A stretch of DNA of 64,000 nt from Armatimonadota bacterium (lineage in GTDB: Bacteria > Armatimonadota > SYMT01). Location of the stretch: assembly GCA_046292385.1 (NCBI GenBank), contig JBKBRF010000004.1:111654-175653 (forward strand), read 5' to 3'. Position numbers and translations under genes: made by a program. This document shows positions 11,118 through 61,946 of the stretch, piece after piece; positions within the stretch are counted from its first letter, which is position 1, and every line of letters starts with the position of its first letter. The notes under the pieces are model-generated. The model was not told the DNA's origin and searched no databases. It saw nothing but the letters and a program-made list of their open reading frames with translations.

Positions 11118-11567
11118 TCACCGGTAGCGCTCGCTGATCCTGTCCTGATGGGCCATGGCGGTGGCAATCACCATCACCAGCATGGTGCCGTGGACCACCA
11201 GCGTTCCGACCACCAGCGCAAAGATGTTCAGGAGGCCACGATCCGCGCTCCAGGCGACCAGCCCCAGCGCTGCGAGGATGAACGGCAGCTTCAACATCCC
11301 GGCCAGCGCCAGCTTCAAGCCGGCACCGCGGCCGCCGTTGAACAACAGCTTTACCGTTGCCTCGCACGTCCAGAGGCTGAACAGCCCGATCGCGGCGCCG
11401 GCGAGCAGTCCCACGGCCACGGTCTTCTGCTCGAAGCCGAGGAACATGAGGGCCGCTACCACGCTGATCTGTGTCGCTCTCCAGTACACCTTGCCTACGA
11501 ACCTCCGATCGAGACCCTGCTTCCAGAAGTCCCAATCTTGCGTATCCTGCGGAATGCCCGCCTCCAT
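11118..11567 (-). CDS. atpI: ATP synthase protein I
   Basis: 149-aa hydrophobic four-helix protein, immediately upstream of atpB and in the conserved operon position. Confidence 0.7.
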   Translation of the reverse strand: MEAGIPQDTQDWDFWKQGLDRRFVGKVYWRATQISVVAALMFLGFEQKTVAVGLLAGAAIGLFSLWTCEATVKLLFNGGRGAGLKLALAGMLKLPFILAALGLVAWSADRGLLNIFALVVGTLVVHGTMLVMVIATAMAHQDRISERYR

Positions 11568-11613
11568 CGCTGCTTACTTCTCCACTTGATTCGTCCCCAA
11601 GCGGCCCCCGCGA

Positions 11614-11901
11614 CTACTCGTCGGGCTCTTCCCCCCGGGATTCTGCTTCAATTCGTTCCTGTTCTCGCGTCGCGCGGATCACGCTTTGAATGAGCTGCTT
11701 GAAGCCCGCAATGATCCCGAGTAGCGTGCCGACGATGACCAGGAATCTGGTGCCCAGCTTCTGATCCAGCCACCAGCCGCCAAAGACTCCGATCGCGATC
11801 GAGATGGCCAGCGTCAGTCCGACGGTCGCCACCTGCGCGGCAAGCCGTACGGAGCGGAGGTCGGTGCGGGGTCCGTGCGGATCCCGCGGCCGCTGGCTCA
11901 T
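11614..11901 (-). CDS. AtpZ/AtpI-family small membrane protein (ATPase_gene1-like), first gene of the atp operon
   Basis: 95 aa with two transmembrane helices (LAAQVATVGLTLAISIAIGVFGGWWL; FLVIVGTLLGIIAGF) upstream of atpI. Its ATG overlaps the aspartate kinase stop (ATGA). Confidence 0.55.
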   Translation of the reverse strand: MSQRPRDPHGPRTDLRSVRLAAQVATVGLTLAISIAIGVFGGWWLDQKLGTRFLVIVGTLLGIIAGFKQLIQSVIRATREQERIEAESRGEEPDE

Positions 11902-13769
11902 TGCTCCAACTCAAAGGTCCGGTGGAGCGCCCGAGCCGCCGCCGGCGCCTCTTCCATCCGCACTAGGCAGGAAACCGACTCCGGCGAGTCCGCCATCTGG
12001 AACATCCCGATTCCGGCCTGCTGCAGCGACTCGCCGATGCGGAGGAGGAACCCGGCCTCTTCCCACATGCTCACCGCCACCAGCGAGACGAGCTCACAAT
12101 TCTCGACCGACTCGAAGCTCACGCCGAACTCGCGGAGGATCTCCTCGACGCGACGGGCGGCGGACTGGTCGACGATAAAGCTCGACGTCCTGGGGCCGAT
12201 ACTGTTGAAGTAGAAGTTGATCTCGGCTTCGCCGATGGCCCGGTAGACGCGGTACTCGATCTCCGCGCGCTGGCCGTCGTCCCGGAGCTGCAGCGTAAAG
12301 TAGACCAGCCGGGAGAGGGTCGCCACGCCGGTCACCGCGCGCTTGGTGGGGGGCTCGATCTCCGCGAGCGGCGCCACCAGCGTTCCCGGCGAGCGGACGA
12401 AGCTCGACTTCACCCAGAGCGGAATCTGGTACCGCATCGCGATCTCTGCGGCGCGGGGATGCAGCACCTTCGCCCCGAGGTGCGCCATGTTGCACACCTC
12501 TTCGTAGGTCACCATCGAGAGTGTGTGCGCGTCCGGTACCACCTCCGGGTCGGCGGTCATCACGCCGTCCACGTGGGTGTAAATCTCCACCTTCTCCGCG
12601 CCGAGGGCGGCGGCGAGCGCGGAGGCGGTGGTATCGCTGCCCCCGCGGCCCAGCGTGGTGATCGCGCCCTGCTCCGTCACGCCCTGGAAGCCGGCCACCA
12701 CCACCACGTCGACTCCTTCTTCCAGAAGGAGCTTGCGGATGTAGGTGGGATCGATGTCGAGGATCTGCGCGTCGCCGTAGCGGTAGTCGGTCAGGATGCC
12801 GGCCTGTCCGCCGGTGAGCGCCACCGCCTGGATGCCGATCGCCTTCAGCGTCTGCGCCATGATGACGGTGGAGATGATCTCTCCGCACGCCATCAGCATG
12901 TCCCGCTCCCGCGGGGCGGGCTCCGTCCCCGCGTCGACCTGGCTCAGGTGGGAGAGGAGCGTATCGGTGGCGTACGGCTCGCCCATCCGGCCGATGGCGG
13001 AGACCACCACCACCGGCAGGTAGCCTTCCTCGATCGCCTCGTGCACTCGCTCGGCGGCGAGACGCCGCGCGTCCGCCGTGCCGACCGACCTCCCACCGAA
13101 CTTCTGCACCACGATCCGCGGCCGCTCCGGCGCGACCTGGAACTCCGCGCGGAGCCGGGCGACCGCCTCTTCCGCGCGGTGGGATTCCACCAGGCAGAAG
13201 ACGGTGTCCGGAGCGTCGCCGGTCTGCAGGATCGGGATCTGCGCCTCCAGCAGCGCCCCGGCGATACGCGCCATCACGCCTGGGATGCCGCGCATCCCGC
13301 CGGCTTTCACGGAGACCATCGCGACGGAAGGCGTGACCGTGCTCTCGAAGCCGGCCGCAGCCAGGACTCGCTCCGCGGCGGTCGCCTCGTCGGCATCGAC
13401 CACGAACGAGAGGCCGAGCGTGTTCAGCTTGACCAGGTTGATGCTGATGCCCGCTTCCGTCAGGGTGCGGTAGACCTGCAGCTCCTGCGCCAGCCGGTCC
13501 GCGTGTGCCCGAGGGGCGGGGGTGGGGAGGGAGACCGCAACGAAGGCGTAGACGCCTTGCGCAGAAACAGAGGTGACTCCACGCTCTTTCTCAAACGGGG
13601 CGCCGCTTCCGGTAGCGGGGGGAAGCAGGCCAAGCGTCTGCTGTCGCGGGTTCACCAAAACTGCTCCGAGGACTGCGGGTGCCGGCCAGGATCTGTTTGA
13701 GATACCGGTATTTCCAGTCCGCTCGGAGTGTATCACGGCGCCTGAACCCTGCCAAGCACCTTTTTTCAC
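11898..13769 (-). CDS. lysC: Aspartate kinase with an additional N-terminal ACT-domain region (start codon uncertain)
   Basis: Kinase core IVVQKFGGRSVGTADARRLAAERV...VVVVSAIGRMG followed by two C-terminal ACT domains. The N-terminal ~170 aa also read as coding (GC3 above 85%) and look like two further ACT-like units (ISINLVKLNTLGLSFVVDADEATAAERVL; MVSVKAGGMRGIPGVMARIAGALLEAQIPILQTG...VESHRAEEAVARLRAEF). The first ~60 codons of the track ORF have low GC3 and are probably non-coding. Candidate starts are TTG/GTG at ~13658/13655, or further downstream. Confidence 0.8.
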   Translation of the reverse strand: MKKGAWQGSGAVIHSERTGNTGISNRSWPAPAVLGAVLVNPRQQTLGLLPPATGSGAPFEKERGVTSVSAQGVYAFVAVSLPTPAPRAHADRLAQELQVYRTLTEAGISINLVKLNTLGLSFVVDADEATAAERVLAAAGFESTVTPSVAMVSVKAGGMRGIPGVMARIAGALLEAQIPILQTGDAPDTVFCLVESHRAEEAVARLRAEFQVAPERPRIVVQKFGGRSVGTADARRLAAERVHEAIEEGYLPVVVVSAIGRMGEPYATDTLLSHLSQVDAGTEPAPRERDMLMACGEIISTVIMAQTLKAIGIQAVALTGGQAGILTDYRYGDAQILDIDPTYIRKLLLEEGVDVVVVAGFQGVTEQGAITTLGRGGSDTTASALAAALGAEKVEIYTHVDGVMTADPEVVPDAHTLSMVTYEEVCNMAHLGAKVLHPRAAEIAMRYQIPLWVKSSFVRSPGTLVAPLAEIEPPTKRAVTGVATLSRLVYFTLQLRDDGQRAEIEYRVYRAIGEAEINFYFNSIGPRTSSFIVDQSAARRVEEILREFGVSFESVENCELVSLVAVSMWEEAGFLLRIGESLQQAGIGMFQMADSPESVSCLVRMEEAPAAARALHRTFELEQ

Positions 13770-32768: not shown

Positions 32769-35153
32769 TTATAGAAGACCCTTCCGCTTGCGCAGGATCC
32801 ATTCGCCGACCAGCAGCGTCACGAACAGGATCAGCGGCAGCGGCGCGTCCCACAGCTCATGCTCCACCCGGCTCCGCACCTCCTGGCTGCGGTCCGGCAG
32901 TAGCTCCGGCAAGCTCTTCGCCTCGCTCCAGAGGAGGTACTTGCCGCCGGAGACGGAGGCGAGCCGCTTCAGCAGCTCCACGTTCTGCTGCGGCTCCTCC
33001 AGCTCGAGGCTCGCCGACTCCACCACCACGTTCGTGAGCGACTCGGCCTTCCGGACTCCCGGCGCCTTCAGCGACGCCTTGTACGAGCCCGGACGCGAGG
33101 CGATCCACTCGCCGGAATAGACGCCCGCCGCGCCGGGGACCGGCTCCAGCTTCACGGGGAAGCGCTGGCCATCTTCGCGGGTGAGGTCGGCGTCGACCGA
33201 GTTCACCCGCACCGGGTGGAAGTTCGGCGTCAGCAGCCGCGCGCGGAGCACCACCCGCTCTCCCAGCGTGTAGGTGGTGCGGTCCGCGGTGAGCCGGACG
33301 TACCGGTTGTCCCCCGGCAGCTCGTGCGGCGTGAGCGAGCGGATCACCTGCCCCCAGAACCGGTAGAAGTACTTGTCCCCGGTCCGGTGGCGCCACTGCC
33401 AGGTGCTGTCGACCATCGTCATGAACGAGGTGCCTTCGCCCACCTGCTGGAGCGCCATCAGCGGGATCTTGCCGTCGGTCCCGGTGATGCCGGGATGCCG
33501 TGCCAGCACCGTGGCGCCCGGCTTGGCCCGGTCGGTGATCCCGCACCAGTACATTCCCGGCAGGTCGTTCCAGACCGTGCGGTTCTGCTCCCGGTCCGGC
33601 ACCAGCAGCATCATCGGGTGTCCGGCGCCCGCGTCGCTCAGCTCGAGCTGGAACGGCTCGCGGAAGATCTGCTCCCGATGCGCGAGCGGCACAACGATCG
33701 GCCACACCGCTTCCAGGTCGGTCTGGCGGTACTGCCACGGCAGGAAGTTCTCGCCCGCCATCGTGATCAGGCTGCCGCCGCGCTCTTCCACGAACGCGCG
33801 CACGTTCTTCAGGTCCGCCGCCGTGAAATAGTCGCGCGGCACGTCGCCGAGCACCAGGATATCGAACTCGAAGAGCGCCTTCTTCGTCCGCGGGAATCCG
33901 AAGATCGGGACGTTCCCCTCGCCACCGCGGGACGGGTCCGGATCGTCGGCTAGCATGCAGGAGAACTGGGTGGTGGTGTCCCGCATGATCGCGTTCTTGA
34001 GGAAGCGATACTCCCAACGGGGATAGCCCTCCACGTAGAGGATCTTCAGCTTCTTGTCGACGATTCGGATCGGCCACGACTTCCGGTTATTGGAGAGCGT
34101 CACCTCGCCCGTCTGTCCCGGCACCGAGACGCTAAGCGTGCGAGCGCCGACCATATCCGGGGTGAACGAGAGGGTCAGCTCCTGCTTGCCGCCCGCGCCC
34201 CGGAGCGGCACGTTGATCCGCTGCAGCACCCGGTTTCCGATTGCGAGGGTGAGTGGGACCGTCCGGCCGGCGAAGCCGCGCTGGCGGAGGCTGACGGAGA
34301 CCACCACCTCGTCGCCCTTCCGCACCACCTCGTCCGCCAGCAGGCTGGTGACGGCGACGTCGCGCGGCGGGGTGGGGTCGCCGAAGCCGACCGTGTAGAT
34401 CGGGGCGCGCAGCTCCGCGGAGCGCCGTGCGGCGAGGGCAGGGTCCTCGCCCATGTTCTGCCCGCCGTCGCTGAGCAGCACCACTCCCGCCAGCGGCTGG
34501 CCGGCGGTGTCCTGCAGCACGAAGTCGATCGCGTCCCCAATGCGGGTTTGCTCGTCCTCCGGCTTACCCACCGCCAGCGGGATCCGCTCTCCGGCCGCCC
34601 CGGGCTCCTTCGGGTCGCCCTTGGCGTCCTTCAGCTCGGTGCCGGTCGCCTCCGTGCCGAAGCGGTAGAGCCGGACGGAGTGCTTCGCGACCAGCTCCTT
34701 CAGCAGCGTGGCGTCCCCCTGGTTCAGGAGCCGCCCCAGCGTCTCCATCCGGGTCGCCTCCGCCATCTTCGGATCGCCGAGCGCCTGGATCAGGTCGGCC
34801 TTGCGCTTTGCGTCCTGCCACCGGTCCTTCAGCCCCATGCTGCTCGACTCGTCGACCAGCACGGCGACCACCGACCGGTTCACCTGCGTCCGGTGACTCC
34901 GCAGCATCGGCTGCCAGATCAGCAGCGCCAGGATCACCATGGCGGCGATCCGCATCACCGAGAGCGGCCCCTTCCAGAGCCACGACGGCCGCCGCCCGTC
35001 TCGCGCGTAAAAGACGACCACCCACGCGAGCAGCCCCAGCCCCGCCGCCACGGCGACCCAGACCGGCCAGGGCTGGACGAAGAACAGGCGGTCCCACCGC
35101 AGCATGTCCTGCCCGGGCTCAATCCCCAGTAATCGGTAGATCCAGTCGCTCAT
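32769..35153 (-). CDS. Membrane-anchored von Willebrand factor A (vWA) domain protein with a large extracytoplasmic C-terminal region
   Basis: Two N-terminal transmembrane helices. vWA MIDAS start VAVLVDESSSMG. 794 aa. Confidence 0.6.
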   Translation of the reverse strand: MSDWIYRLLGIEPGQDMLRWDRLFFVQPWPVWVAVAAGLGLLAWVVVFYARDGRRPSWLWKGPLSVMRIAAMVILALLIWQPMLRSHRTQVNRSVVAVLVDESSSMGLKDRWQDAKRKADLIQALGDPKMAEATRMETLGRLLNQGDATLLKELVAKHSVRLYRFGTEATGTELKDAKGDPKEPGAAGERIPLAVGKPEDEQTRIGDAIDFVLQDTAGQPLAGVVLLSDGGQNMGEDPALAARRSAELRAPIYTVGFGDPTPPRDVAVTSLLADEVVRKGDEVVVSVSLRQRGFAGRTVPLTLAIGNRVLQRINVPLRGAGGKQELTLSFTPDMVGARTLSVSVPGQTGEVTLSNNRKSWPIRIVDKKLKILYVEGYPRWEYRFLKNAIMRDTTTQFSCMLADDPDPSRGGEGNVPIFGFPRTKKALFEFDILVLGDVPRDYFTAADLKNVRAFVEERGGSLITMAGENFLPWQYRQTDLEAVWPIVVPLAHREQIFREPFQLELSDAGAGHPMMLLVPDREQNRTVWNDLPGMYWCGITDRAKPGATVLARHPGITGTDGKIPLMALQQVGEGTSFMTMVDSTWQWRHRTGDKYFYRFWGQVIRSLTPHELPGDNRYVRLTADRTTYTLGERVVLRARLLTPNFHPVRVNSVDADLTREDGQRFPVKLEPVPGAAGVYSGEWIASRPGSYKASLKAPGVRKAESLTNVVVESASLELEEPQQNVELLKRLASVSGGKYLLWSEAKSLPELLPDRSQEVRSRVEHELWDAPLPLILFVTLLVGEWILRKRKGLL

Positions 35154-35164
35154 TTAAAAGGCAA

Positions 35165-35237
35165 AAGGCTAAAGGTTCACCCCCGAATGGGGGGCTAAAG
35201 GTTCACCCCCCGAACGGGGGCTAAAGGGCTGCACGGG
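35165..35237. repeat. Tandem direct repeat of a C5-GAAY-G5 hairpin unit (2.5 copies) in the vWA/BatA intergenic spacer
   Basis: ggctaaaggttcaCCCCCgaatGGGGGgctaaaggttcaCCCCCCgaacGGGGGctaaagggctgcacggg. Confidence 0.5.
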
Positions 35238-35278: not shown

Positions 35279-35315
35279 GCCCTACACGCTACACCCTAAA
35301 CGCTACCCCCTAGCC
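35279..35315 (-). repeat. G-rich heptamer (TACACCC / CTAAACG) repeat. The minus strand carries three to four GGG tracts.
   Basis: ccctacacgctacaccctaaacgctaccccctagcc, directly after the BatA-like gene stop. Confidence 0.45.
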
Positions 35316-35316
35316 A

Positions 35317-37470
35317 CTACGATCTTCTCCCGAACGCCTGGGCCAGCATCGTCTCGATCGCCATCAGGGCGAGCGCGGCGATCAGCAGGTGACGCCACAG
35401 CTCGATCCCCTGGCGGCTCCGCGTCAGCTCCGTGAGAAGGTTGTCGTTCAGGCTGATCCAGGTCAGCTCTCGCACCGGCAGCAGCTTCCGGACCGCGGCT
35501 TCATCGAGGCCGCGGAGGTCGGCTTCCGCCGGATCCCGGTTTACCGCAAAGAGGTCTTCGCTGCCGCCGGCGGAGGCCAGCCGGTAGAATCCCGCCGCCT
35601 TCGTGGAGGGCACCGTCACCACGGCGCCGCGCTCGTCGACCACCGGCTTCAGCGTCGTCTTCTGTCCTTTCGGACTGATCGCGGTGACGCGCTCTCCTGC
35701 TTCGGAGAGCGGCAGCGGCTTCACCAGCGGCTCCCCCAGCCGTCCGTTGCGGGTGCCGTCCGCGCTGCTCGCCAGGTAGGCGATGAGCTGATGCACCATC
35801 GGCAGGAACGCGGGCCGCAGCGGGAGCGTGTTCCACTCCGTGTTCGCCGTGCTCGCCACCAGGATCACGCGCCCCAGCCCGAACTCCTTCTCCACGATTG
35901 CCGGCGCGCCGTTGCTGAAGCGGGCCATCACCTGGACCGACTTGTCGCCTTCCTTCGGAGTGAGCCGGAAATAGCGGGAGAAGTCGGCGGTATTCAGGTC
36001 GACGTCCTGCGCGCCGCGGAACCGCTGCAGGGCGGGGTGCTCCACGCTGGCGGGGTCGAGGAACGCCTTCTCGGTCCCAACGCCGGAGAGGCGGGCCGGC
36101 AGCAGGCTCGGCTGCGCCTCGTAGAGGTCCCGATTGTAAAGGCTGGCGTTCACCCGGCTGCCGAGGAAGATCACCGCGCCGCCGCCGTTCTGTACGAACT
36201 CCGCCAGCAGGCGGCGGTCGCCCTCGCCGAGGGTCGCCACGTCGGAGAGCGCCACCACGTCGTAGCCGCGCACGTTCTCGCCGCCGAAGGTGCTGCCGGT
36301 GATCACCCGCGGCTCCAGCGGCGTCGCCTCCTGGCCGGGGGAGGTGAGCGGCGGTGCGAGCGCGAGCTGCAGGAAGAAAGCGCCGTCCTTCTGGGGCGTC
36401 TGCGGGTTGGGCCGACCGTTCAGCACCAGCACCTTCACGTTCTGCCGCACCGGGAGCGCCAGGTAGCCGCGGTCGTCCGCCGGGAGGCGGTCTTCCGAGA
36501 TCCGGACCGTACAGGCCCGCACGCCCGGACGGTCGAAGATCTGGTTGAAGGTGACGAGGGTGCCCTGGCCCGGCTCCACGTCGATCCGCTGCGTCGATCC
36601 CTGCGCCTGGCCGTCGACCTCCAGCGTCACCAGCAGCCCGCGGGCCGCCTGGGTGCCGCGGTTGATGACGCGGGCCTGGATCCGCGCGGAGGAGCGGGCG
36701 GTCGCCAGCCCCCGCGCCGCCTGGACCCACTCCACGGCCAGGTTCGAGGCGCGCGGCTCGCGCGCCGGCAGCATCACGAGGCGCGCGGCCTTCGCCAGCG
36801 ACTCCCACGCGGCGGGGTCGCGTCCCTTGCCGTCGAAGCCGAGCGCCTGGTTATCGCTGATCAGGAAGACCTCGCGATTGACGAAGCGCGACTCGTTCAG
36901 CACCTCGACCGCCAGGCGCGCCGCGCCGCCGAAGTTGGTGCCGGCGTCGGAAAGCGCCACGCCCTTCCGCAGCACCTCCGTGACCGTGTTCAGGTCGAGG
37001 CTGGGCTGGCGGATCAGCGCCCGGGGCGGCTCTGAGGCGAGGATGACGCTGACGCCGTCGCCCTGCCGGAGCCCCCGCTGCACCAGGTCGAGCGCCCGGT
37101 CGCGGGCGCGGTCGAAGACCGTCTCGGCGCGCCCTACCGACGGGCGGTAGCCCATGCTGTAGGAGTTGTCCAGGATGATGACCGCGTGGACCTGCCCCCG
37201 CTGGCTCGCTACCGGGACCCCGCCCATCCGCACGATGGGGCGGCAGAGAGCGAGCACGACCAGCGCGATGATGAGGCAGCGGATCAGGAGGAGCAGGAGT
37301 TGCTCGATCATCAGGCGCCGGCTGCGGTTCCGCTGGCTCTGGCGCAGGAACTCCATCGCCCCCCACCGCACCACGCGGAAGCGCTTCCGCTGGAGCAGGT
37401 GGATGATGATCGGAATGCTGACCAGCGCGAGCGCGCCGAGCAGACCGCTGTTGATGAAAGAGAGTCCCAT
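35317..37470 (-). CDS. BatA-like protein: aerotolerance-regulator N-terminal domain plus vWA domain
   Basis: BatA_N-type start MGLSFINSGLLGALALVSIPIIIHLLQRKRF, a second transmembrane helix, then vWA MIDAS VIILDNSYSMG. 717 aa. Confidence 0.7.
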   Translation of the reverse strand: MGLSFINSGLLGALALVSIPIIIHLLQRKRFRVVRWGAMEFLRQSQRNRSRRLMIEQLLLLLIRCLIIALVVLALCRPIVRMGGVPVASQRGQVHAVIILDNSYSMGYRPSVGRAETVFDRARDRALDLVQRGLRQGDGVSVILASEPPRALIRQPSLDLNTVTEVLRKGVALSDAGTNFGGAARLAVEVLNESRFVNREVFLISDNQALGFDGKGRDPAAWESLAKAARLVMLPAREPRASNLAVEWVQAARGLATARSSARIQARVINRGTQAARGLLVTLEVDGQAQGSTQRIDVEPGQGTLVTFNQIFDRPGVRACTVRISEDRLPADDRGYLALPVRQNVKVLVLNGRPNPQTPQKDGAFFLQLALAPPLTSPGQEATPLEPRVITGSTFGGENVRGYDVVALSDVATLGEGDRRLLAEFVQNGGGAVIFLGSRVNASLYNRDLYEAQPSLLPARLSGVGTEKAFLDPASVEHPALQRFRGAQDVDLNTADFSRYFRLTPKEGDKSVQVMARFSNGAPAIVEKEFGLGRVILVASTANTEWNTLPLRPAFLPMVHQLIAYLASSADGTRNGRLGEPLVKPLPLSEAGERVTAISPKGQKTTLKPVVDERGAVVTVPSTKAAGFYRLASAGGSEDLFAVNRDPAEADLRGLDEAAVRKLLPVRELTWISLNDNLLTELTRSRQGIELWRHLLIAALALMAIETMLAQAFGRRS

Positions 37471-39546: not shown

Positions 39547-39580
39547 CCTAAACCCTACACCCTAGACCCTAGACCCTAAC
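39547..39580 (-). repeat. G-rich heptamer repeat (CCCTAAA/CCCTACA/CCCTAGA units; minus strand TTAGGG-like) abutting the stop of the downstream toroid-protein gene
   Basis: cctaaaccctacaccctagaccctagaccctaac. A complementary G-rich arm ggggggttagaggtaggtgtgtg lies ~30 nt upstream, so a long imperfect hairpin is also possible. Confidence 0.5.
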
Positions 39581-44926: not shown

Positions 44927-45002
44927 GCCTGCGCGCCAAATCCCATGTCTGCCCAGGATCAGGAGTAGCTGCAGCCGGGGCGCGCCCCGCCTTCGGACCA
45001 GC

Positions 45003-45030
45003 TACACCCTACACCCTACACCCTACACCC
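45003..45030 (-). repeat. (TACACCC)x4 perfect heptamer repeat. On the minus strand it reads (GGGTGTA)4, a canonical G3N4G3N4G3N4G3 quadruplex motif.
   Basis: ctacaccctacaccctacaccctacacccc between the toroid-protein-2 start and the giant-protein stop. Confidence 0.55.
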
Positions 45031-51611: not shown

Positions 51612-53582
51612 TTAGCGGACCTCGCCGGAGGAGCGGATCCGCTCGATCACCTCGTCCTCGAACTCCTTGCCGGAGTCGACCGCGGCGTTCGGATCGTCAC
51701 CCAGCGGCAGAAAGAGCTCCTTCGCGGCGGCGGCGAGCGCTTCCGGATCGGCGAACACGAGCTCGGCCACCTGCCCGTCGCCCACCAGGGCGACAAAGCG
51801 CCGCCGCTCGCCCGCGTCGGCCAGCGCCCGGTTCGCGGCGTCGACCACCGCCGTCACGTCGTACCAGTCGCCGAGGTTCTCCGCCTTGAACTTGTAGAGC
51901 TTGCCGCCGTGGATGAACTGCACCACGTACGGCGCCTCCTCGTCGTCATCGGAGCCGAGCCAGCGCTCGTACGGCGCCTCCGGCTTGAACGCGCCGCCGC
52001 TGTGCCTGGCGAAGTCGCGCAGCAGGCGGTCGTGCCGCACCGGGATCACGCCCGTCTCCGCGTCGAACGAGGTGAGAAGGCCCGCCGCTTCGAAGGTCGC
52101 GCCGAGAAACCGCTTCGCGCCGGTCGGATCGTCCGCTTCCCGCCCCGCCTGGGAGTACTCGTAGATACCGTCGTCGGTCAGGCGGTCGGCAGGCTCCTGC
52201 TTCAGAGCTGCCGCCAGCTTCGCCCGCGCGCGGGCCAGCGCCTTCTCATCCAGCACCTTCAGCTCCCCCAGCCGCTGGAGCGCCTTCTCCGCCGTGATCC
52301 CGTGCTCCGCCCAGCGCACCGCCGCCCGGTCAGCCGGGTCGAGGCGGTCCGCCAGCGCGGCGGCGGCGCGGATGGCCGCGTCCCCACCGATCAGCAGCAG
52401 CGCCGAAGCGGCGGCGGGAGCGACTCCGTCGCCGTCCTGCGACCGGGCAGCGGTCTCGCGGAGGACGCGGACCAGCTCCGCGTCGCCGCTCCCGCGGCCC
52501 GCAGTGCCGAGCGTCGAGATGGCGGCACTCCGCAGCTCCGGGATCGAGAGGAGGGAGAGCGCCAGCGCGCGCCCGCGGGGCGGGTCTCGCCGCGCCAGCG
52601 CCTCCAGGGCCCGGGCGCGAAGGGGGTCCGGCGTCGTGGACGCGCGCGCCAGGCGCTCCAGCAGCTCCGCGGCCTTCGCGCCGCCGTGCTCCGCCACCGC
52701 CTCGAGGGCGGACGCCTCCCCGCCGCTCGTCCCGCCTCCCAGCCCGTCGTCCCGGCGGCGAGTCAGCGCCTGCGCACACGCCTCTACGGCTGCGGCGGAG
52801 ACCGCGGGGGACTTCGCCGCGGCCGCCTCCGCCAGGCCGGTCAGATACCAGTAGCTCTCCTGCTGGTCGGTGGACCGGAGCCGCGCCGCGCTGAGCCGAA
52901 TCAGCTCTTCGGACGGCGCCGCCTGCGACAGCCAGAAGGCGGCGCGCCCACCGGTCTCATCCCCTTTGCGGATCAGCTCCAGCAGCCTCCGATTCATCGC
53001 CGGACTCGCCAGCCGCCCCGCCGCCTCCACCGCCACCCGGCGGAGCTCCCGGTCCCGCGAATCGAGGGAGCGGAGCACCACCCCCTCCAATCCCGGCAGC
53101 TTCGCGCGGTCCGCCGGGCCGAGCTCCGCCGCGGCGCCCAGCACTGCGAACGACTCACCAGGGACGGTGAGTGCCTTCCGCGCGGCGTCGATGCCCGCCG
53201 GGTCGCCCAGCCGCAGCAGCATGAACGCCGCCGCCGTCCGCTGGGAGTTACGGCTCCCCGCCGGCCCTTCGAGCTGTTTCCGCAGCACCGGGACCACCCC
53301 CGCCCGCCGCTTTCGGAGCGCCGCGAACGACTCCGCGTCGACGTCCGCCATCATGATCAGCGTGTCGAGCTCCTCTGCGCGGTCCTCCCGCTGCCGCCGC
53401 GCCCCCAGCTCCCGCGCCCGCCGGAGCGCCGCCGGATCGGCCGACACCTCGATGCGGGTGGCAGCCGCTGCGGCGCGCACCACGTCCCCCGCCGCAGCCG
53501 GAGGCCCGCTCACCGCCCCGCAGCCCAGGAGCGAAAACCCCAACGGCACAGCCCAAACCCAGCGGTAGCTCATCTCACGCAC
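51612..53582 (-). CDS. HEAT/PBS-lyase-like repeat lipoprotein
   Basis: Lipobox ...GFSLLGC. Alpha-helical Ala/Leu/Arg-rich repeats over ~600 aa. Confidence 0.55.
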   Translation of the reverse strand: MREMSYRWVWAVPLGFSLLGCGAVSGPPAAAGDVVRAAAAATRIEVSADPAALRRARELGARRQREDRAEELDTLIMMADVDAESFAALRKRRAGVVPVLRKQLEGPAGSRNSQRTAAAFMLLRLGDPAGIDAARKALTVPGESFAVLGAAAELGPADRAKLPGLEGVVLRSLDSRDRELRRVAVEAAGRLASPAMNRRLLELIRKGDETGGRAAFWLSQAAPSEELIRLSAARLRSTDQQESYWYLTGLAEAAAAKSPAVSAAAVEACAQALTRRRDDGLGGGTSGGEASALEAVAEHGGAKAAELLERLARASTTPDPLRARALEALARRDPPRGRALALSLLSIPELRSAAISTLGTAGRGSGDAELVRVLRETAARSQDGDGVAPAAASALLLIGGDAAIRAAAALADRLDPADRAAVRWAEHGITAEKALQRLGELKVLDEKALARARAKLAAALKQEPADRLTDDGIYEYSQAGREADDPTGAKRFLGATFEAAGLLTSFDAETGVIPVRHDRLLRDFARHSGGAFKPEAPYERWLGSDDDEEAPYVVQFIHGGKLYKFKAENLGDWYDVTAVVDAANRALADAGERRRFVALVGDGQVAELVFADPEALAAAAKELFLPLGDDPNAAVDSGKEFEDEVIERIRSSGEVR

Positions 53583-53790
53583 CCTCGAGCACGAAGCTCA
53601 CCAAGAAACGCCAGGGAGTGATGCCTTACTTTCCAGGTCCGCCAGCAGACGCCCAAAAACCCTCAACCGCCTGCCAACCCGGCAACCGATCCACAGCCAA
53701 ACCGCGGCGTCTGCAGGCCCAGCCGCAGGCTGGGCTGGAGGAGGCCACCTGTGACCGCCCCTGGGCGCAGGGGCGGTAGCTCGACGGCGG

Positions 53791-53941
53791 TCGATTCAGC
53801 CCGTGATCCGCACTCCTGATGAAATCCGTCGCGGTGGCGCGGGAAGAGCCTTTCGGAGCGCACTCCCGGAGCAGCCCGCTAACGGAGCGAAGCGGAGTGT
53901 GAAAGGGCCGCGGAGGGCTTTCGCCGCGGGAGGGCTGAAGC
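53791..53941. mobile_element. MITE-like ~150-bp element, copy 1 (degenerate terminal inverted repeats)
   Basis: gattcagccc ... ggcgcgggaagag ... gagcgcactcccggagc ... aaagggccgcggagggc ... cgcgggagggctgaagc. Aligns end-to-end with the element at 59009-59166. Confidence 0.45.
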
Positions 53942-54059
53942 GGCCGACTAGGGCTCGGGGTCGGGCTTTCGGTACGGACGCTGCCTCTCGACCGCAGCCT
54001 GAGATCAACCCCACGTAGCCGACGCTGCCATCCGCCACGAGAGGTGAAACACTCGGTCC

Positions 54060-55310
54060 TCAGTCCCCCCGCATCACCCAATCCACTCCAAACCGCGCAT
54101 GCCGGATCGCCTCCCGCAAGGGCCTCCCTTCCACGTCTTTCTGCGCCGCACGCTCCGGCAGGCTGTAAGTGTAGGTGGCATGGAGCGCGCCGTCCTTCGC
54201 CTCGATGATGGAGGGGTAGTGGAACCCGGTGCCGTCCGGCACGTCCCGCTCCAGGTGCCGGTTCCAGCGCCACGTCTTGCCGTCGTCGTCGGAGATCGAG
54301 ACGAGCAGCGAGTGCCGCCCGCGCTCGGTGTCGTTGTTGATCAGGACCCAGCGGCCGTCGCGCAGGGTGACGACGTCGACTCCGGAGCCGGGGTTCAGGA
54401 TCTCGGAGTCGCGGACGGTCGACCAGGTCAGGCCGCCGTCCCGCGACTCGCTGTAGAGGAGGCGCTGCGGCGGGCCGCCGTTATCCCGCATGAAGGCGGC
54501 GAGGGTGCCGTCCCGCTTCCGAGCGAGGGCGGGCTGCACCGGGCCGTCGCCGACCAGCGGCGTGCTGGTGGTCCAGGTCTCGCCCCAGTCATCGGTGATC
54601 GCCATCAGGGAGAAGTCGAAGCCGTCCGAGTAGAGCGGCAGGATCATCCGGCGGCCGTCCAGGATATACGGGTGGACGCGGGGCATCCAGCCGAGGCGGT
54701 TGAAGTACCTGTCCGCGGCGTTGGCCCGGCGGCGCTCCAGATACTCCCGCACCGCCGGCCGCTGCGCCTCCGGGAAGGTGTCGACCCGGCGGAGGTCGCG
54801 CTCCACCGCTTCCTGTACGATTTGCGTGAACTCCGGCCCCGGCTTCAGGTGGACCACCCGCTCCTCCGCCCAGACCGGCGCGGCGCCGCGCCGCTGGTAA
54901 TTGCGGGAGATGCGGCACTTGAGCAGCGCGGTGTGCCACTCGTTCGCCTGGATCACCGGCCAGAAAAGCCAGAGCCGCTCCTGCGGGTCGATGATCATGC
55001 AGGGGTTGCAGTCCGGAAAGCCGGGAACGTCCGCCATCAGGAACGGCTCGCTCCAGGCGGTGTCCCGCGGCCGCTTGCGGGCGCCCATGATGCGCACGTC
55101 ATCCGCCCGCCGCTCGCCGGAGCCGAGGTACCAGCACGCCAGGAGGTCGCCGTTCGGGCACTGCACCACGCAGCTCCCGTGGCTGTGGAGGTGTCCGAGC
55201 GGAAAGATCAGCTCCGACCGCACCGGCGGCGGACTCCCCGCACACGCCGCCGAAGCCGCCCCCGCGGCGATCCCGCCACCCACCCCCATTAGGAACTCGC
55301 GCCGGTCCAT
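54060..55310 (-). CDS. Tat-exported exo-alpha-sialidase/BNR-repeat family protein
   Basis: Tat signal MDRREFLMGVGGG. Asp-box motifs SESRDGGLTWS and SISDDDGKTWR. Six-bladed-propeller-like composition. Confidence 0.65.
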   Translation of the reverse strand: MDRREFLMGVGGGIAAGAASAACAGSPPPVRSELIFPLGHLHSHGSCVVQCPNGDLLACWYLGSGERRADDVRIMGARKRPRDTAWSEPFLMADVPGFPDCNPCMIIDPQERLWLFWPVIQANEWHTALLKCRISRNYQRRGAAPVWAEERVVHLKPGPEFTQIVQEAVERDLRRVDTFPEAQRPAVREYLERRRANAADRYFNRLGWMPRVHPYILDGRRMILPLYSDGFDFSLMAITDDWGETWTTSTPLVGDGPVQPALARKRDGTLAAFMRDNGGPPQRLLYSESRDGGLTWSTVRDSEILNPGSGVDVVTLRDGRWVLINNDTERGRHSLLVSISDDDGKTWRWNRHLERDVPDGTGFHYPSIIEAKDGALHATYTYSLPERAAQKDVEGRPLREAIRHARFGVDWVMRGD

Positions 55311-55477
55311 GCTCGCTCTCCCGTTTCGCTCTTTGCCTGACAGGGAGGCGGTTCGCCGCAGGGACCACGCTTCCATCCACGGAACTGGGCTCCATCGGAC
55401 GCCCCGCCGGCGGAAGCGCTGAATGCCGCTTCAAACTCAGCCGCGTGCGCCATGTCCCTGATGGATAGAGGCTGCGG

Positions 55478-57170: not shown

Positions 57171-58589
57171 TCACACCCGCTCCAACTCGGTCCAGTGGCT
57201 CAGGGCGCTGTCCAGCTTCACGCCGGGCGGCGACTTCACCACCAGCGCGCCGTTCAGCACGTCGCCGCGGTGGTGCAGGTCGAGGTGGAGGTGGTACGGC
57301 CGCCGGTTGGCATCCTCGGTGCCGATGTCGCCCGCGAAGCAGCCGGTGAGCCAGCCGTCTCGCAGCACCGGCTCGCTCACCAGGGTCGTAAGCTGGCTGC
57401 CCAGGCGCACGTGCACGTCGCTGTCCGGGTGGAACGCCAGCGCGAGTGGCAGCTCGGCCTCGCCGGTGGCGACCGTCCCCCGCCACTCGCCGCGGAGTGT
57501 GGGGTAGGGACGCGGCTCGCCGTCGGCCTCCGCAGGCGACGGCTTGCGGCGCGCCTGCTCCGCGATCCGGGGGACCAGCAGCGCCACCACTTCCCGCGCG
57601 ACGTCGAACGGAAGGCTGGAGGCGGCGTTGCAGAGGGCGACCACCGCCAGCCGCTCGGCCGGAACCAGCAGCAGGATCGTGTTCACGCCGTCCATCCCAC
57701 CGGTATGACTCACGCTCCGCGCGCCTTCCCATTCGTCGCTGATCCGCCAGCCGACGCCGTAGCCGACCGTCTCGGTGCAGGTGGCGGTCGGCTTCTGCAT
57801 CTCCTCGATCCCGGCGTGGGTCAGGATCGGCTTCTGGTCCGGCAGCCCCGCCTGGAGATGGAACATGCCGAAGCGGAGGAGGTCGCGCGCGCTGCAGAAG
57901 ACGGCGGAGGCCCCGGGGTGATCGAAGTCGTAGAACGGCAGCCGCAGCCCATCCGGCGCGTAGCGGGCCGCGGCGTACGGCTCCAGCCCGGGGCCGACGC
58001 CGACCGAGGCGCGGGTCATTCCGAGCAGTAGGAAGACCTCGCGGCGCATGAACTCCGCGAAGCTCTGTCCGGAGACGTGGGAAATCACCTCGTCCAGCAC
58101 GCCGTAGCCGAGGTTGGAGTACTGATAGCGCTCGCCCGGCGCGGTGACCAGGTTCCCGTAGCGGCGCAGCGTCTCGCGGAAGGGTGGACGCCGGCGCGGC
58201 TCGTCCTCCGGAAAGAAGTGCCAGTGGAGCGGCAGGCCGGAGGTGTGGTTCGCCACCCGGCGCAGCGTCGCGTCGTCCGCGTCTCCCACCCGCGCGGTGA
58301 GGCGGGCGTCCCCCAGGTAGTCGTGCGCCGGCCGGTCCAGGTCCAGCTCGCCTCGCTCGTGCAGCACCATCAGCCCGGTCGCCGTGATCGGCTTGGAGAT
58401 GGAGGCGAGGGAATAGAGCGTGTCCGGCGTGGCGGGAATCCGCGCCTCGCGGTCCGCCCAGCCGAACGCCTCCTCCCAGAGCGGCTCCCCGTGCTGGGCC
58501 ACCGCTACGGCGAGCGACGGCAGCGATTCCTCACTCAGGCGGGCGCGGATCTCTCCGCGAAGGGCGTGGAACAGGTCGGCGCGGCTCAT
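57171..58589 (-). CDS. Serine hydrolase (beta-lactamase / penicillin-binding-protein-like)
   Basis: S-x-x-K active-site motif SISKPIT, a YSN-like motif and an HTGG element. Start taken at the internal MSRADL. Confidence 0.7.
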   Translation of the reverse strand: MSRADLFHALRGEIRARLSEESLPSLAVAVAQHGEPLWEEAFGWADREARIPATPDTLYSLASISKPITATGLMVLHERGELDLDRPAHDYLGDARLTARVGDADDATLRRVANHTSGLPLHWHFFPEDEPRRRPPFRETLRRYGNLVTAPGERYQYSNLGYGVLDEVISHVSGQSFAEFMRREVFLLLGMTRASVGVGPGLEPYAAARYAPDGLRLPFYDFDHPGASAVFCSARDLLRFGMFHLQAGLPDQKPILTHAGIEEMQKPTATCTETVGYGVGWRISDEWEGARSVSHTGGMDGVNTILLLVPAERLAVVALCNAASSLPFDVAREVVALLVPRIAEQARRKPSPAEADGEPRPYPTLRGEWRGTVATGEAELPLALAFHPDSDVHVRLGSQLTTLVSEPVLRDGWLTGCFAGDIGTEDANRRPYHLHLDLHHRGDVLNGALVVKSPPGVKLDSALSHWTELERV

Positions 58590-58982
58590 GCGGCTCCTTC
58601 CGGGCAACAGCCAGCCGCCGCCCGGCAATCCGGCGGCGGCCACAATCCGGGTTCCACGTTGGCGGGAGGGGGGAGAACTTCCTGTCTTGCTTGTTCGGCG
58701 CGAGGGTCTTCCTCGCCCCGGAGCGAGGTGTCCCCCAATCGTACGCTGGATTCATCTCCCCGAGGAAGCCACCCCGTGCCCTTGCCGGATACTGTTGGCG
58801 AGATCTGGAAGCCGCTCCGAACGCACCGCTGGCGCGGGACGCGAAAGCAAGCATTCGCACTCCACATGCCGGACCGGAAGGGATTCCCTCGCGCCCGAAG
58901 GGAGACTGCCTCGGTGCAGTCGGCGGAGTCCGGGGCGTCCGGAGGAGCAGCCGGAGGCTGCGCCGGAGGATGGCATTTGTGA

Positions 58983-59004
58983 CCACCCCTTGGCCAAGGG
59001 GTGG
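58983..59004. terminator. Perfect palindromic hairpin ccaccccttgg/ccaaggggtgg
   Basis: 22-nt perfect palindrome in the 0.7-kb non-coding stretch between the helicase stop and the serine-hydrolase start. Likely a terminator for the helicase gene. Confidence 0.4.
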
Positions 59005-59008
59005 TTGC

Positions 59009-59166
59009 TCGAAGGGTCGGGATTCAGCCCGTGAACCAGGCTGCTGTAACGGTAGTGCGCACTGGCGCGGGAAGAGTGAATGGGAGCGCACTCCCGGAGC
59101 GGCCTGCTAGCGCCGGAGGCGCGTTAAAGGGCCGCGGAGGGCAATGTCGCGGGAGGGCTGAATCCC
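59009..59166. mobile_element. MITE-like ~158-bp element, copy 2, with perfect 12-bp terminal inverted repeats GGGATTCAGCCC / GGGCTGAATCCC
   Basis: The terminal inverted repeats were read directly. The interior aligns with copy 1 (ggcgcgggaagag, gagcgcactcccggagc, aaagggccgcggagggc, cgcgggagggctgaa). Confidence 0.5.
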
Positions 59167-59283
59167 GACACAAGGGCACGGGGTTGACCTCGCGAAATCG
59201 ACGCTGCCACACGGCAAAAAGCGCGACGACTGGCGGCGGGTCGGCCCCGCGGCATTACACCGCGAGGCCGAACCCAGAACCCT

Positions 59284-60696
59284 CTAGCGCGACACGCTCT
59301 TGAACGAAGGCAGCCGCGCCGGCGCCGCCGCCGGGCTCGGGCTTGCTTCCGGACGTCGGCCCCGGCGGCTGCGGCTGCCGCTGCGGGCGGTGTCCTGCGT
59401 GCTTCCGCGCGACTCCCGCACCGGCGCGGAGCTCGTCGGCTGGGACCGCGTGCCGCTGCTCCGCTTCGGCGGCTGCGGGGCGGGCGCTGCCGGCCGCTCC
59501 TGGGCGCGCGGGCGCGCCTGGCCGCGCGGCTGCCGCGGCGGAGGCGGCACGGAGGGCGCGATGCCGCTCGACTGGTAGTCGAACCCGTCGGCTTTCGCCC
59601 GCGGCAGCGACTTCCCGAGCGCCTTCTCGATGTCTCGCAGGCACGCTTCTTCGTCCGGAGAGACGAACGTCACCGCGTCGCCGCTCGCCTCCGCGCGGGC
59701 CGTCCGCCCCACGCGGTGGATGTAGTCTTCCGTCACGTTCGGCACGTCGAAGTTGACCACGTGGCTCAGCCCGTGGACGTCGATCCCGCGGGCGGCGATG
59801 TCGGTCGCCACCAGCACGCGCGCCTCGCCGCTGCGGAAGCTCGCCAGCGCGTTGGTGCGCTGCGACTGGCTCCGGTTGCCGTGGATCCGCTCGCACGCGA
59901 CGCCGTGCTTGGAGAGGAAGTCGGCCAGGCGGTTGGCACGGTGCTTGGTGCGGGTGAAGACGACGACCGACTGCATCTCTTCGCTCTGCAGCAGGTGGAG
60001 CAGCAGCGGCGACTTCAGCGTCTGCGCCACGGGGTAGAGCTTGTGCGCGATCTTCTTGGCGGGAGTCGCCCGGCGCTCGATGTTGAACGTCACCGGATTC
60101 ACCAGCATGTCGCGCGCCAGCTCCGCGATCGGGCCGGGGAGCGTGGCGGAGAAGAGCAGCGTCTGCCGCTGCTTCGGCACGTGGCTCAGTACCCGTCGGA
60201 TGTCCGGCAGGAAGCCCATGTCGAGCATGCGGTCGGCTTCGTCCAGCACCAGGTGCTCGATGCCGTCCAGCCGGGCGTAGGGGCGGCTCAGGTGATCGAG
60301 CAGGCGGCCCGGCGTGGCGACGAGCACGTCGGCGCCGCGGCGGAACGCCTCTTCCTGGGGACCCATGCCGACCCCGCCGAAGATGGCGGCGCCGGTCAGG
60401 CGCGTGTAGCGGCCCAGGAGCTGCAGGTGCTCGTGGATCTGCGCCGCCAGCTCGCGGGTGGGGGCCAGGATCAGCGCCCGGGTGCGGCCACGGGGCTGCT
60501 TCAGGAGCTGGTTCAGGATCGGCAGGCCGAACGCGGCGGTCTTGCCGCTGCCGGTGGAAGCGCACCCCAGCACGTCGCGCCCCTCCAGGCCGGGAGGAAT
60601 GGCGTCGCGCTGGATGGCGGTCGGCTCGGTGAAGCCGAGCTCCTGGACCGCCCGCCGCAGGTCGGCGTGCAGCTCGAAAGAATCAAAGTGGGACAT
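59284..60696 (-). CDS. DEAD-box ATP-dependent RNA helicase (RhlE/CshA-like)
   Basis: Q motif, Walker A ASTGSGKTAAF, PTRELA, DEAD (VLDEADRMLDMGF), SAT, HRVGRTARA. Basic Arg/Gly/Ser-rich C-terminal tail. Confidence 0.9.
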   Translation of the reverse strand: MSHFDSFELHADLRRAVQELGFTEPTAIQRDAIPPGLEGRDVLGCASTGSGKTAAFGLPILNQLLKQPRGRTRALILAPTRELAAQIHEHLQLLGRYTRLTGAAIFGGVGMGPQEEAFRRGADVLVATPGRLLDHLSRPYARLDGIEHLVLDEADRMLDMGFLPDIRRVLSHVPKQRQTLLFSATLPGPIAELARDMLVNPVTFNIERRATPAKKIAHKLYPVAQTLKSPLLLHLLQSEEMQSVVVFTRTKHRANRLADFLSKHGVACERIHGNRSQSQRTNALASFRSGEARVLVATDIAARGIDVHGLSHVVNFDVPNVTEDYIHRVGRTARAEASGDAVTFVSPDEEACLRDIEKALGKSLPRAKADGFDYQSSGIAPSVPPPPRQPRGQARPRAQERPAAPAPQPPKRSSGTRSQPTSSAPVRESRGSTQDTARSGSRSRRGRRPEASPSPAAAPARLPSFKSVSR

Positions 60697-60959: not shown

Positions 60960-61249
60960 CAGTGGACCTGGCCGAAGCCAGCACCGTCACGTTATCACGT
61001 CCGGAAGATTAAAGCAAGCAGTTCACTTTGTAGCGTTGAGAGCGAATGGCGCTCCTGTCCGTAATCTGGTAGAGTTGAATCGCAAGTTCACATCGGGTTC
61101 GTAACGCATTATGGATCACGGAAGCTGTAGCCCGCTCCGCTAGTGCCTTACCCTCATCGGTGTAGCGCGCTGATAAAACCTGGCAGCGGTGCGGTAGGCC
61201 TGCCGCATCCAGCGACCGTCCCCGCTTGGGGAATCTTCCGAGGAACGTG
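60960..61249 (+). promoter_or_regulatory. Long, locally AT-rich (~45% GC) leader upstream of the RRM-protein gene; candidate cold-shock-type 5' UTR
   Basis: A marked GC drop in a 70%-GC genome (gttatcacgtccggaagattaaagcaagcagttcactttgtagcgttgagagcgaatgg...). It lies between the divergent helicase and RNA-binding-protein genes. Confidence 0.35.
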
Positions 61250-61693
61250 ATGAGCAAGAGACTCTACGTCGGCAACCTGTCTTACGACATGTCGGAGCAG
61301 GAGCTGCAGTCCCTTTTCGAGCCGTACGGCGCACGCAGCGTCAACCTGATCACGGAGCACGATGGACGCTCGAAAGGCTTTGCCTTCGTGGAAGTTGACG
61401 ACGAGCAGATGGACGCGGCGATCTCCGCGCTGAATGGCAAAGAGGTGCGGGGACGCAGCCTGAACGTCAATGAAGCGCGGCCGCGCGAGGACCGCGGTGG
61501 TGGCGGTGGTGGTTACGGCGGCGGCGGTGGCGGCGGCCGGCGCGGCGGCGGTGGCGGCGGCTACGGCGGCGGCGGTGGTTACGGCGGCGGCGGCGGTGGC
61601 TACGGTGGTGGTGGCGGCGGCTACGGCGGCGGCGGCGGCGGTGGTGGCCGGCGCGGTGGCGGCGGCGGCGGCCGGGACCGCGGCGGCTGGTAG
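61250..61693 (+). CDS. RRM-type RNA-binding protein with a glycine-rich (RGG/GGYGGG) tail
   Basis: RNP2 LYVGNL and RNP1 KGFAFVEV. The C-terminal tail is (GGGGYGGGGG)n with RRGGGGG. GAGGAAC Shine-Dalgarno. Confidence 0.85.
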   Translation: MSKRLYVGNLSYDMSEQELQSLFEPYGARSVNLITEHDGRSKGFAFVEVDDEQMDAAISALNGKEVRGRSLNVNEARPREDRGGGGGGYGGGGGGGRRGGGGGGYGGGGGYGGGGGGYGGGGGGYGGGGGGGGRRGGGGGGRDRGGW

Positions 61694-61946
61694 TTCCTCC
61701 TTCGGCCCGAGTTACACTCGGCGGAGGCTGAAAGTCGACTCACGCGGGCCGGACTTGCTCCGTAACCCGCGTGAGCGCTCTCGAGCGGGAGGGCCTCGCT
61801 CTCCTCTCCCCCGATCGAACCAAACCTGCTGTGCGTCTAGGCCCCGGGGCTTCTCCGGGGCCGTCCGCTGCGCGCGGGTGGAATACAACGTCCTGCAGCC
61901 GGCGCTGTGCGGACGGTCTAGGGATGTTTAGGAAAGGTGGAAGATC

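Follow-up and report, generated by a model that had tools for sequence, protein, structure and literature searches.

A duplicated ~285-nt intergenic element with a covarying predicted fold in an Armatimonadota genome: a candidate structured non-coding RNA family

Introduction

Orphan large structured non-coding RNA motifs of bacteria, including raiA, HEARO and the GC-rich intergenic-region candidates of the Breaker laboratory, have emerged from comparative genomics, and among the large orphan RNAs of bacteria, those with invariant junctions have repeatedly proved to be ribozymes, riboswitches or the guide and scaffold RNAs of new systems. Paralogous trans-acting small RNAs (sRNAs) encoded near each other comprise, among others, the pairs (i) OmrA/OmrB, (ii) AbcR1/AbcR2, (iii) 6S-1/6S-2, and (iv) CsrB/CsrC. 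A further group, the REP/BIME and ERIC repeats and the Correia/NEMIS miniature inverted-repeat transposable elements (MITEs), displays simple palindromes or conserved terminal repeats and occurs in tens to hundreds of copies. To our knowledge, almost no non-coding RNAs have been characterized in the Armatimonadota.

Here we describe two copies of an intergenic element located in a 64-kb stretch of an Armatimonadota genome, hereafter the window. A preliminary description of the same stretch had proposed either a MITE or a structured small RNA family; the structural comparison of the two copies supports the second option as far as two sequences allow, based on 13 compensated base pairs and a column-shuffle z score of -6.85 for the consensus fold.

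Extent and Copy Number of the Element

The direct-repeat search, the MAFFT alignment, blastn and nhmmer agree that the two copies are homologous over ~285 nt, with ~53703-53990 corresponding to ~58931-59213. The copies share 73.7% identity over 289 aligned nt in blastn (E 1.5e-40), the nhmmer similarity reaches E ~1e-89, and both lie on the plus strand, separated by ~5 kb. The whole units are as follows:

53703-53990, plus strand, ~288 nt: copy 1, boundaries from blastn and nhmmer; 321.6 bits with the covariance model R1
58931-59213, plus strand, ~283 nt: copy 2, boundaries from blastn and nhmmer; 319.7 bits with the covariance model R1

The preliminary description had reported two copies of ~150 bp; their homology, their common orientation and the exact shared blocks that it quoted stand, but the length must be corrected, since the homologous unit of ~285 nt takes in a 3' tail and, on the upstream side, two hairpins beyond the ~150 nt first described. 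The flanks upstream of the copies show no conservation between the loci. Neither a third copy nor partial modules were detected in the 64-kb window, which includes ~40 spacers, by nhmmer without filters (--max) or by the covariance model R1 at its default filter settings.

Coding Potential

Where the alignment runs without gaps (183 nt), its 49 mismatches are spread evenly over the codon positions (17/17/15) and clustered in runs. The indels between the copies measure 4 nt and 1 nt, and all frames on both strands encounter stops or lose register. The elements are thus non-coding, as first described, with no open frame common to both. A small ORF starting from a conserved GGAGGA-N8-GUG (53737-53755 and 58965-58983) was considered and set aside as probably no gene, comprising 22 codons in one copy versus 44 in the other, with differences that are almost all non-synonymous. 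The GGAGGA itself resembles a Shine-Dalgarno sequence and is kept in both copies.

Genomic Setting

According to a map of G+C at third codon positions and to Pfam scans, the genes adjoining both elements are ordinary chromosomal genes, all encoded on the minus strand:

51612-53573, minus strand: orphan gene (653/656 aa), its start adjoining copy 1
54060-55376, minus strand: BNR sialidase gene, its stop adjoining copy 1
57171-58643, minus strand: beta-lactamase-family gene, its start adjoining copy 2
59284-60696, minus strand: DEAD-box helicase gene, its stop adjoining copy 2
between the two copies, plus strand: SGNH/GxDLY esterase gene

The position of both elements on the 3' side of minus-strand genes, noted from the outset, is confirmed at ~70 nt past the sialidase and helicase stop codons. 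Toward the other side, the distance from the element to the start codon of the minus-strand gene is 133 nt for copy 1 and ~290 nt for copy 2, and the intervening sequence is not conserved. Since the flanking genes of the two loci are unrelated, the element itself must have been duplicated or moved, rather than being part of a segmental duplication. Genes for transposases, reverse transcriptases, Cas, RAYT or IS200/IS605-type proteins are absent from the 20 ORFs scanned with Pfam between 39.5 and 64 kb of the window, a set that includes all neighbours.

The product of the orphan gene displays no Pfam domain above the gathering cut-off, and a search among 5.8 billion proteins returned no homologue but the protein itself. 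The next genes in the same direction encode an 803-aa protein without Pfam match and then a 1300-aa DUF4175 protein. At the second locus, the helicase, which is RhlE-like, is divergently oriented to the gene of a glycine-rich RRM RNA-binding protein (61226-61693, plus strand), with a GGY/RGG tail encoded by a repeat at 61467-61700, an arrangement that recalls cold-shock gene pairs.

A Conserved Multi-branch Fold

The consensus structure predicted by RNAalifold for the plus strand comprises 79 base pairs, 13 of which are changed on both sides between the copies with pairing kept. The predicted layout includes (i) a possible terminal helix, (ii) two 5' hairpins, (iii) a closing helix of ~19 bp, and (iv) a multi-branch core, arranged as follows:

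53710-53742, plus strand: hairpin a of copy 1, GCCCAGCC-GCA-GGCTGGGC plus outer pairs (helices 3-4)
58938-58970, plus strand: hairpin a of copy 2, GCAGCC-GGA-GGCTGC
53754-53777, plus strand: hairpin b of copy 1, ACCGCCCCTG-GGCG-CAGGGGCGGT (helix 5, 10 bp)
58982-59005, plus strand: hairpin b of copy 2, ACCACCCCTT-GGCC-AAGGGGTGGT
53778-53802, plus strand: 5' strands of the closing helix of copy 1, first described as the left terminal inverted repeat; outer GCTC, covarying CGGTCG and invariant TTCAGCCC (copy 2, 59006-59030)
53803-53931, plus strand: core interior of copy 1, with a GUGA junction, a variable arm and invariant blocks (copy 2, 59031-59154)
53932-53955, plus strand: 3' strands of the closing helix of copy 1, first described as the right terminal inverted repeat; GGGCTGAA-G-CGGCCG ... 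GGGCT (copy 2, 59155-59178)
53956-53990, plus strand: 3' tail of copy 1, with conserved CGGGGT and GACGCTGCC (copy 2, 59179-59213)

The covariation is distributed over the hairpins and the closing helix. Hairpin a shows one compensatory pair (C-G to G-C) and two G·U-to-G-C changes, and hairpin b two compensatory pairs (G-C to A-U and G-C to U-A). The closing helix (helices 6 and 7) carries six compensatory pairs and is built, in order, of GCUC/GGGC, a 6-bp extension and UUCAGCCC/GGGCUGAA; the extension reads CGGUCG/CGGCCG in copy 1 versus GUCGGG/CCCGAC in copy 2, comprising five consecutive compensatory pairs within helix 7. This helix is where the proposed terminal inverted repeats lie. The inverted repeat of copy 2, GGGATTCAGCCC...GGGCTGAATCCC, is indeed perfect over the 12 bp originally given and extends to 15 bp (GTCGGGATTCAGCCC / GGGCTGAATCCCGAC), but copy 1 has only TTCAGCCC/GGGCTGAA. 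The supposed terminal repeat is the inner part of an internal helix, the outer 5-6 bp of which covary and are not conserved.

Two controls bear on the fold, with statistics that are optimistic because the structure is derived from the same two sequences (n = 2). The 13 double-sided changes compare with 0-2 once each pairing partner is shifted 1-3 columns along the alignment, and 0/500 shuffles reach the observed value. Over 300 column shuffles that keep the gap and conservation patterns, the plus-strand consensus energy of -113.6 kcal/mol compares with -75.5 ± 5.6 kcal/mol (z = -6.85), and the structure conservation index of 0.74 with 0.555 ± 0.039.

Five blocks of 14-18 nt are invariant beside the drifted helices. 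Within the core, the invariant blocks comprise TGGCGCGGGAAGAG, GGAGCGCACTCCCGGAGC (a GGAG-CGCA-CUCC hairpin), AAAGGGCCGCGGAGGGC, and CGCGGGAGGGC (a CCGCGG hairpin), while the single-sequence folds of copies 1 and 2 disagree in the core interior. The possible terminal helix, read from the sequence, would pair GACGCT of the tail with GGCGTC at 53706-53711 (partner in copy 2, 58934-58939), and is devoid of covariation support because it is invariant between the copies. Since 13 compensated pairs stand next to five unchanged blocks, a neutral local duplication is an inadequate account of the pair.

Four GGG tracts are fully conserved at 53905-53933 and 59129-59156, with loops of 7, 9-10 and 1 nt, and overlap the CCGCGG hairpin. 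They have the potential to form a predicted G-quadruplex that would compete with this hairpin.

Folded Strand and Transcription Signals

Watson-Crick covariation is blind to the strand, so that G·U pairs must decide. In the helices backed by covariation, each cell that departs from Watson-Crick pairing is G·U on the plus strand and none is A·C; on the minus strand at least six of the same cells would be A·C, and the minus-strand prediction leaves such cells unpaired. The minus-strand shuffle test is also weaker (z = -5.15 and a structure conservation index of 0.67, compared with z = -6.85 and 0.74 for the plus strand). The favoured folded strand is the plus strand, which would be antisense to all four flanking genes, an assignment that rests on a handful of positions. 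No sigma-70-like promoter, the one promoter type scanned, and no canonical intrinsic terminator were detected on the plus strand by either copy.

Search for Relatives

None of the 4227 models of Rfam 15 matches at the gathering score across the whole window. At E <= 10, the matches over either copy are short chance matches (miRNA, lncRNA, terminator-like), none spanning the element and none to 6S, and ARAGORN, which was also negative for the tmRNA considered as a candidate, reports no tRNA or tmRNA genes. The searches of sequence collections comprise (i) the exact 18-nt GGAGCGCACTCCCGGAGC in GTDB representative genomes, with 25 matches, none with another block nearby and all attributable to chance; (ii) AAGGGCCGCGGAGGGN{4,14}GCGGGAGGGC in JGI metagenomes, with 0 matches; (iii) the three-junction pattern CCCGTGA...GGGAAGAG...AAAGGGCC in JGI metagenomes, with 12 matches, all by chance; (iv) four patterns in IMG/VR viral contigs, with a single chance match; and (v) blastn against plasmids and phages, with no match. 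These pattern scans require 18-25 exact bases and close relatives are absent from the collections, so that the negatives say little on the wider distribution of the element. A literature search that included the element's own sequence strings found no mention of it.

The best non-self relatives of the helicase and sialidase share only 76% and 73% identity, respectively, which places the organism in a lineage without close sequenced relatives. Seven contigs from relatives, reached through the helicase and sialidase homologues, gave no nhmmer or R1 covariance-model match. In the closest sialidase relative (73%), a convergent gene lies 5 nt past the stop codon and the element is absent. At the GCA_041690135.1 locus, 1062 nt without a called gene (11476-12538) lie downstream of the helicase homologue; this gap neither matches an Rfam model above threshold nor resembles the element. 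The lack of any homologue elsewhere is unusual for a large complex RNA.

A Candidate Structured RNA

We tentatively interpret the two copies as a paralogous pair of a previously undescribed ~285-nt structured non-coding RNA family, a reading that leads the alternatives while falling somewhat short of probable. Such an RNA would most likely be transcribed from the plus strand, antisense to the flanking genes, with selection acting on the RNA and not on the DNA. The purine-rich invariant GGGAAGAG, AAAGGG, GGAGGGC and the GGAG-CGCA-CUCC hairpin may provide contact surfaces for a protein or nucleic-acid partner, or engage in tertiary contacts, and the terminal helix would join the 5' and 3' ends, as observed in stable processed RNAs. 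The molecule might then be a stable RNA that acts in trans, as a scaffold or by sequestration, and not the leader of adjacent genes.

A bolder version is possible, though doubtful: the pair could represent a new large multi-branch RNA class in an isolated Armatimonadota lineage, with two diverged paralogues the invariant junctions of which form a binding pocket or a protein platform. Such a class, unrelated to curated families, could be a ribonucleoprotein component, a ligand-binding RNA or a catalytic RNA, and might switch between hairpin and G-quadruplex in GGG-N7-GGG-N9/10-GGG-N1-GGG.

At present the element is a lead, backed by two sequences. Should it prove to be an RNA gene, the Armatimonadota would gain a family of complex structured RNAs; should it be a lineage-specific structured repeat, it would be ordinary, and relevant mainly for the assembly and annotation of this metagenome-assembled genome.

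Alternative Explanations

The main rival to the RNA pair, which we regard as rather unlikely, is a lineage-specific intergenic repeat of the REP/BIME, ERIC or PATE type. Such an element would be non-autonomous or formerly mobile, would spread or persist through hairpins in single-stranded DNA or mRNA, would have many further copies and, if active, would stabilize or punctuate the mRNA between co-directional genes. Both copies do occupy spacers of co-directional genes, ~70 nt past a stop codon, and the failure to find homologues outside the organism is typical of genome-specific repeats; yet the 64 kb and ~40 spacers contain two copies only and no partial modules, and the window between 39.5 and 64 kb lacks RAYT and IS200/IS605-type genes. 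The architecture also argues against a repeat of this kind, being a multi-branch fold with invariant junction blocks and no simple palindrome, and the G·U asymmetry puts the folded strand opposite the mRNAs. At 74% identity, 13 double changes nonetheless keep pairing, which points to long-term selection on the fold and not to recent copying.

Assembly data are compatible with both sides of this comparison. Two Logan short-read contigs of the same organism (SRR31360857) are identical to the window, one ending at 53903 and the other starting at 53937, and thus stop either side of the 33-nt GGG-rich AGGGCCGCGGAGGGCTTTCGCCGCGGGAGGGCT (53904-53936), the most conserved part of copy 1. The gap could reflect a branch of the assembly graph caused by further near-identical copies, as a multi-copy repeat would produce, or sequencing dropout in an 82% G+C hairpin/G-quadruplex segment, which explains the breaks equally well. 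Contig ends are frequent in the SRR31360857 assembly, which is interrupted within the beta-lactamase gene as well.

A repeat element is made more plausible a priori by the other short, structured repeats and hairpin arrays found between genes of this genome. Heptamer tandem repeats, which read (GGGTGTA)n or (TAGGGTC)n along the minus strand, the coding one, are located at 45002-45030, 39548-39580 and 35282-35324, and also at 478-506, in short spacers directly past the stop codons of minus-strand genes; their four GGG tracts with 4-nt loops give the mRNA strand a canonical G-quadruplex motif. In addition, 2-3 tandem small hairpin units, CCTTTAGCCCCCC-RTTC-GGGGGGTGAA, are present at 35160-35235 (minus strand), immediately before the gene at 32769-35153 begins.

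That the element acts in cis on the minus-strand mRNAs is improbable. It would then be either a riboswitch-like or protein-binding leader of the orphan gene with its downstream genes and of the beta-lactamase-family gene, or a 3' UTR of the sialidase and helicase messages. The location of each copy, upstream of one minus-strand gene (133 nt and ~290 nt) and downstream of another, would suit either role; the fold of the minus strand is likewise significantly better than that of shuffled alignments (z = -5.15), and this strand displays several CCUCC motifs resembling anti-Shine-Dalgarno sequences, read from the sequence. Against a leader, the start codons are distant and no conserved expression platform is apparent, the adjoining genes are functionally unrelated between the loci, and known riboswitch and leader families of Rfam 15 give no match. 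As for a 3' UTR, a terminator-like long hairpin with a T5 run separates copy 2 from the helicase stop codon on the minus strand, which makes copy 2 unlikely to belong to the helicase message. Both roles are also disfavoured by the strand comparison, with at least six A·C mismatches in the supported helices on the minus strand and 0 on the plus strand, and with weaker minus-strand consensus energy and z score.

A strict MITE, meaning a non-autonomous DNA transposon that is mobilized by a transposase and has both terminal inverted repeats and target-site duplications, is very improbable and largely refuted: the perfect 12-15-bp inverted repeat of copy 2 and the two same-orientation copies in unrelated spacers would suit it, but the repeat is internal to a homologous unit that runs ~85 nt further left and ~50 nt further right, only 8 bp of it are common to copy 1 while the remainder covaries, the searches of plasmid, phage and viral collections gave nothing similar, target-site duplications are absent (read from the sequence) at both the 150-nt and the 285-nt boundaries of either copy, and no cognate transposase occurs among the 20 Pfam-scanned ORFs. 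Two copies only, without target-site duplications, is what the 64-kb window contains, an outcome that the preliminary description had itself taken to point to local duplication in place of a transposon.

Further candidates were rejected, including (i) a hammerhead core (CUGAUGA...GAAA), which copy 2 lacks; (ii) a cobalamin-like GGGAA / GAUGAAAUCC, likewise confined to copy 1 and wrongly ordered there; (iii) attL/attR of an island or an integron attC, owing to too low identity, wrong size and no GTTRRRY motif; and (iv) a retron, omega-RNA or bridge RNA, as no reverse transcriptase, IscB, TnpB or IS110 gene is adjacent.

Comparison with Known Systems

The element shares with the REP/BIME, ERIC and Correia/NEMIS families its non-coding nature, its location just past stop codons, its stable stem-loops and its apparent restriction to one lineage. 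It differs from them in being multi-branched, with an end-proximal helix that covaries, no target duplications, and two copies seen in the window.

As in the paralogous sRNA pairs, two diverged same-orientation copies lie a few kb apart, with functional blocks kept and helices drifting. In size and branching the element far exceeds typical base-pairing sRNAs and, unlike these, has no recognizable promoter or terminator. The terminal helix that may link its two ends resembles that of 6S RNA, although the 6S model gives no match at E <= 10. The GGA triloops of copy 2, in hairpin a and in the GCGCC-GGA-GGCGC arm, have as their copy 1 counterparts a GCA loop and an arm with another fold; the loop GGA motifs are thus not conserved between the copies, and the element is not CsrB-like.

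Compared to the motifs of the raiA and HEARO type, the element lacks an Rfam 15 match and is known from two copies in one uncultured Armatimonadota genome; in addition, HEARO occurs with IscB, whereas the element has no associated protein gene. On the other hand, it resembles these motifs in its size of a few hundred nt, its intergenic location, its conserved non-coding sequence, its compensated multi-helix fold and its invariant junction and loop blocks, in a genomic context that is likewise uninformative on function.
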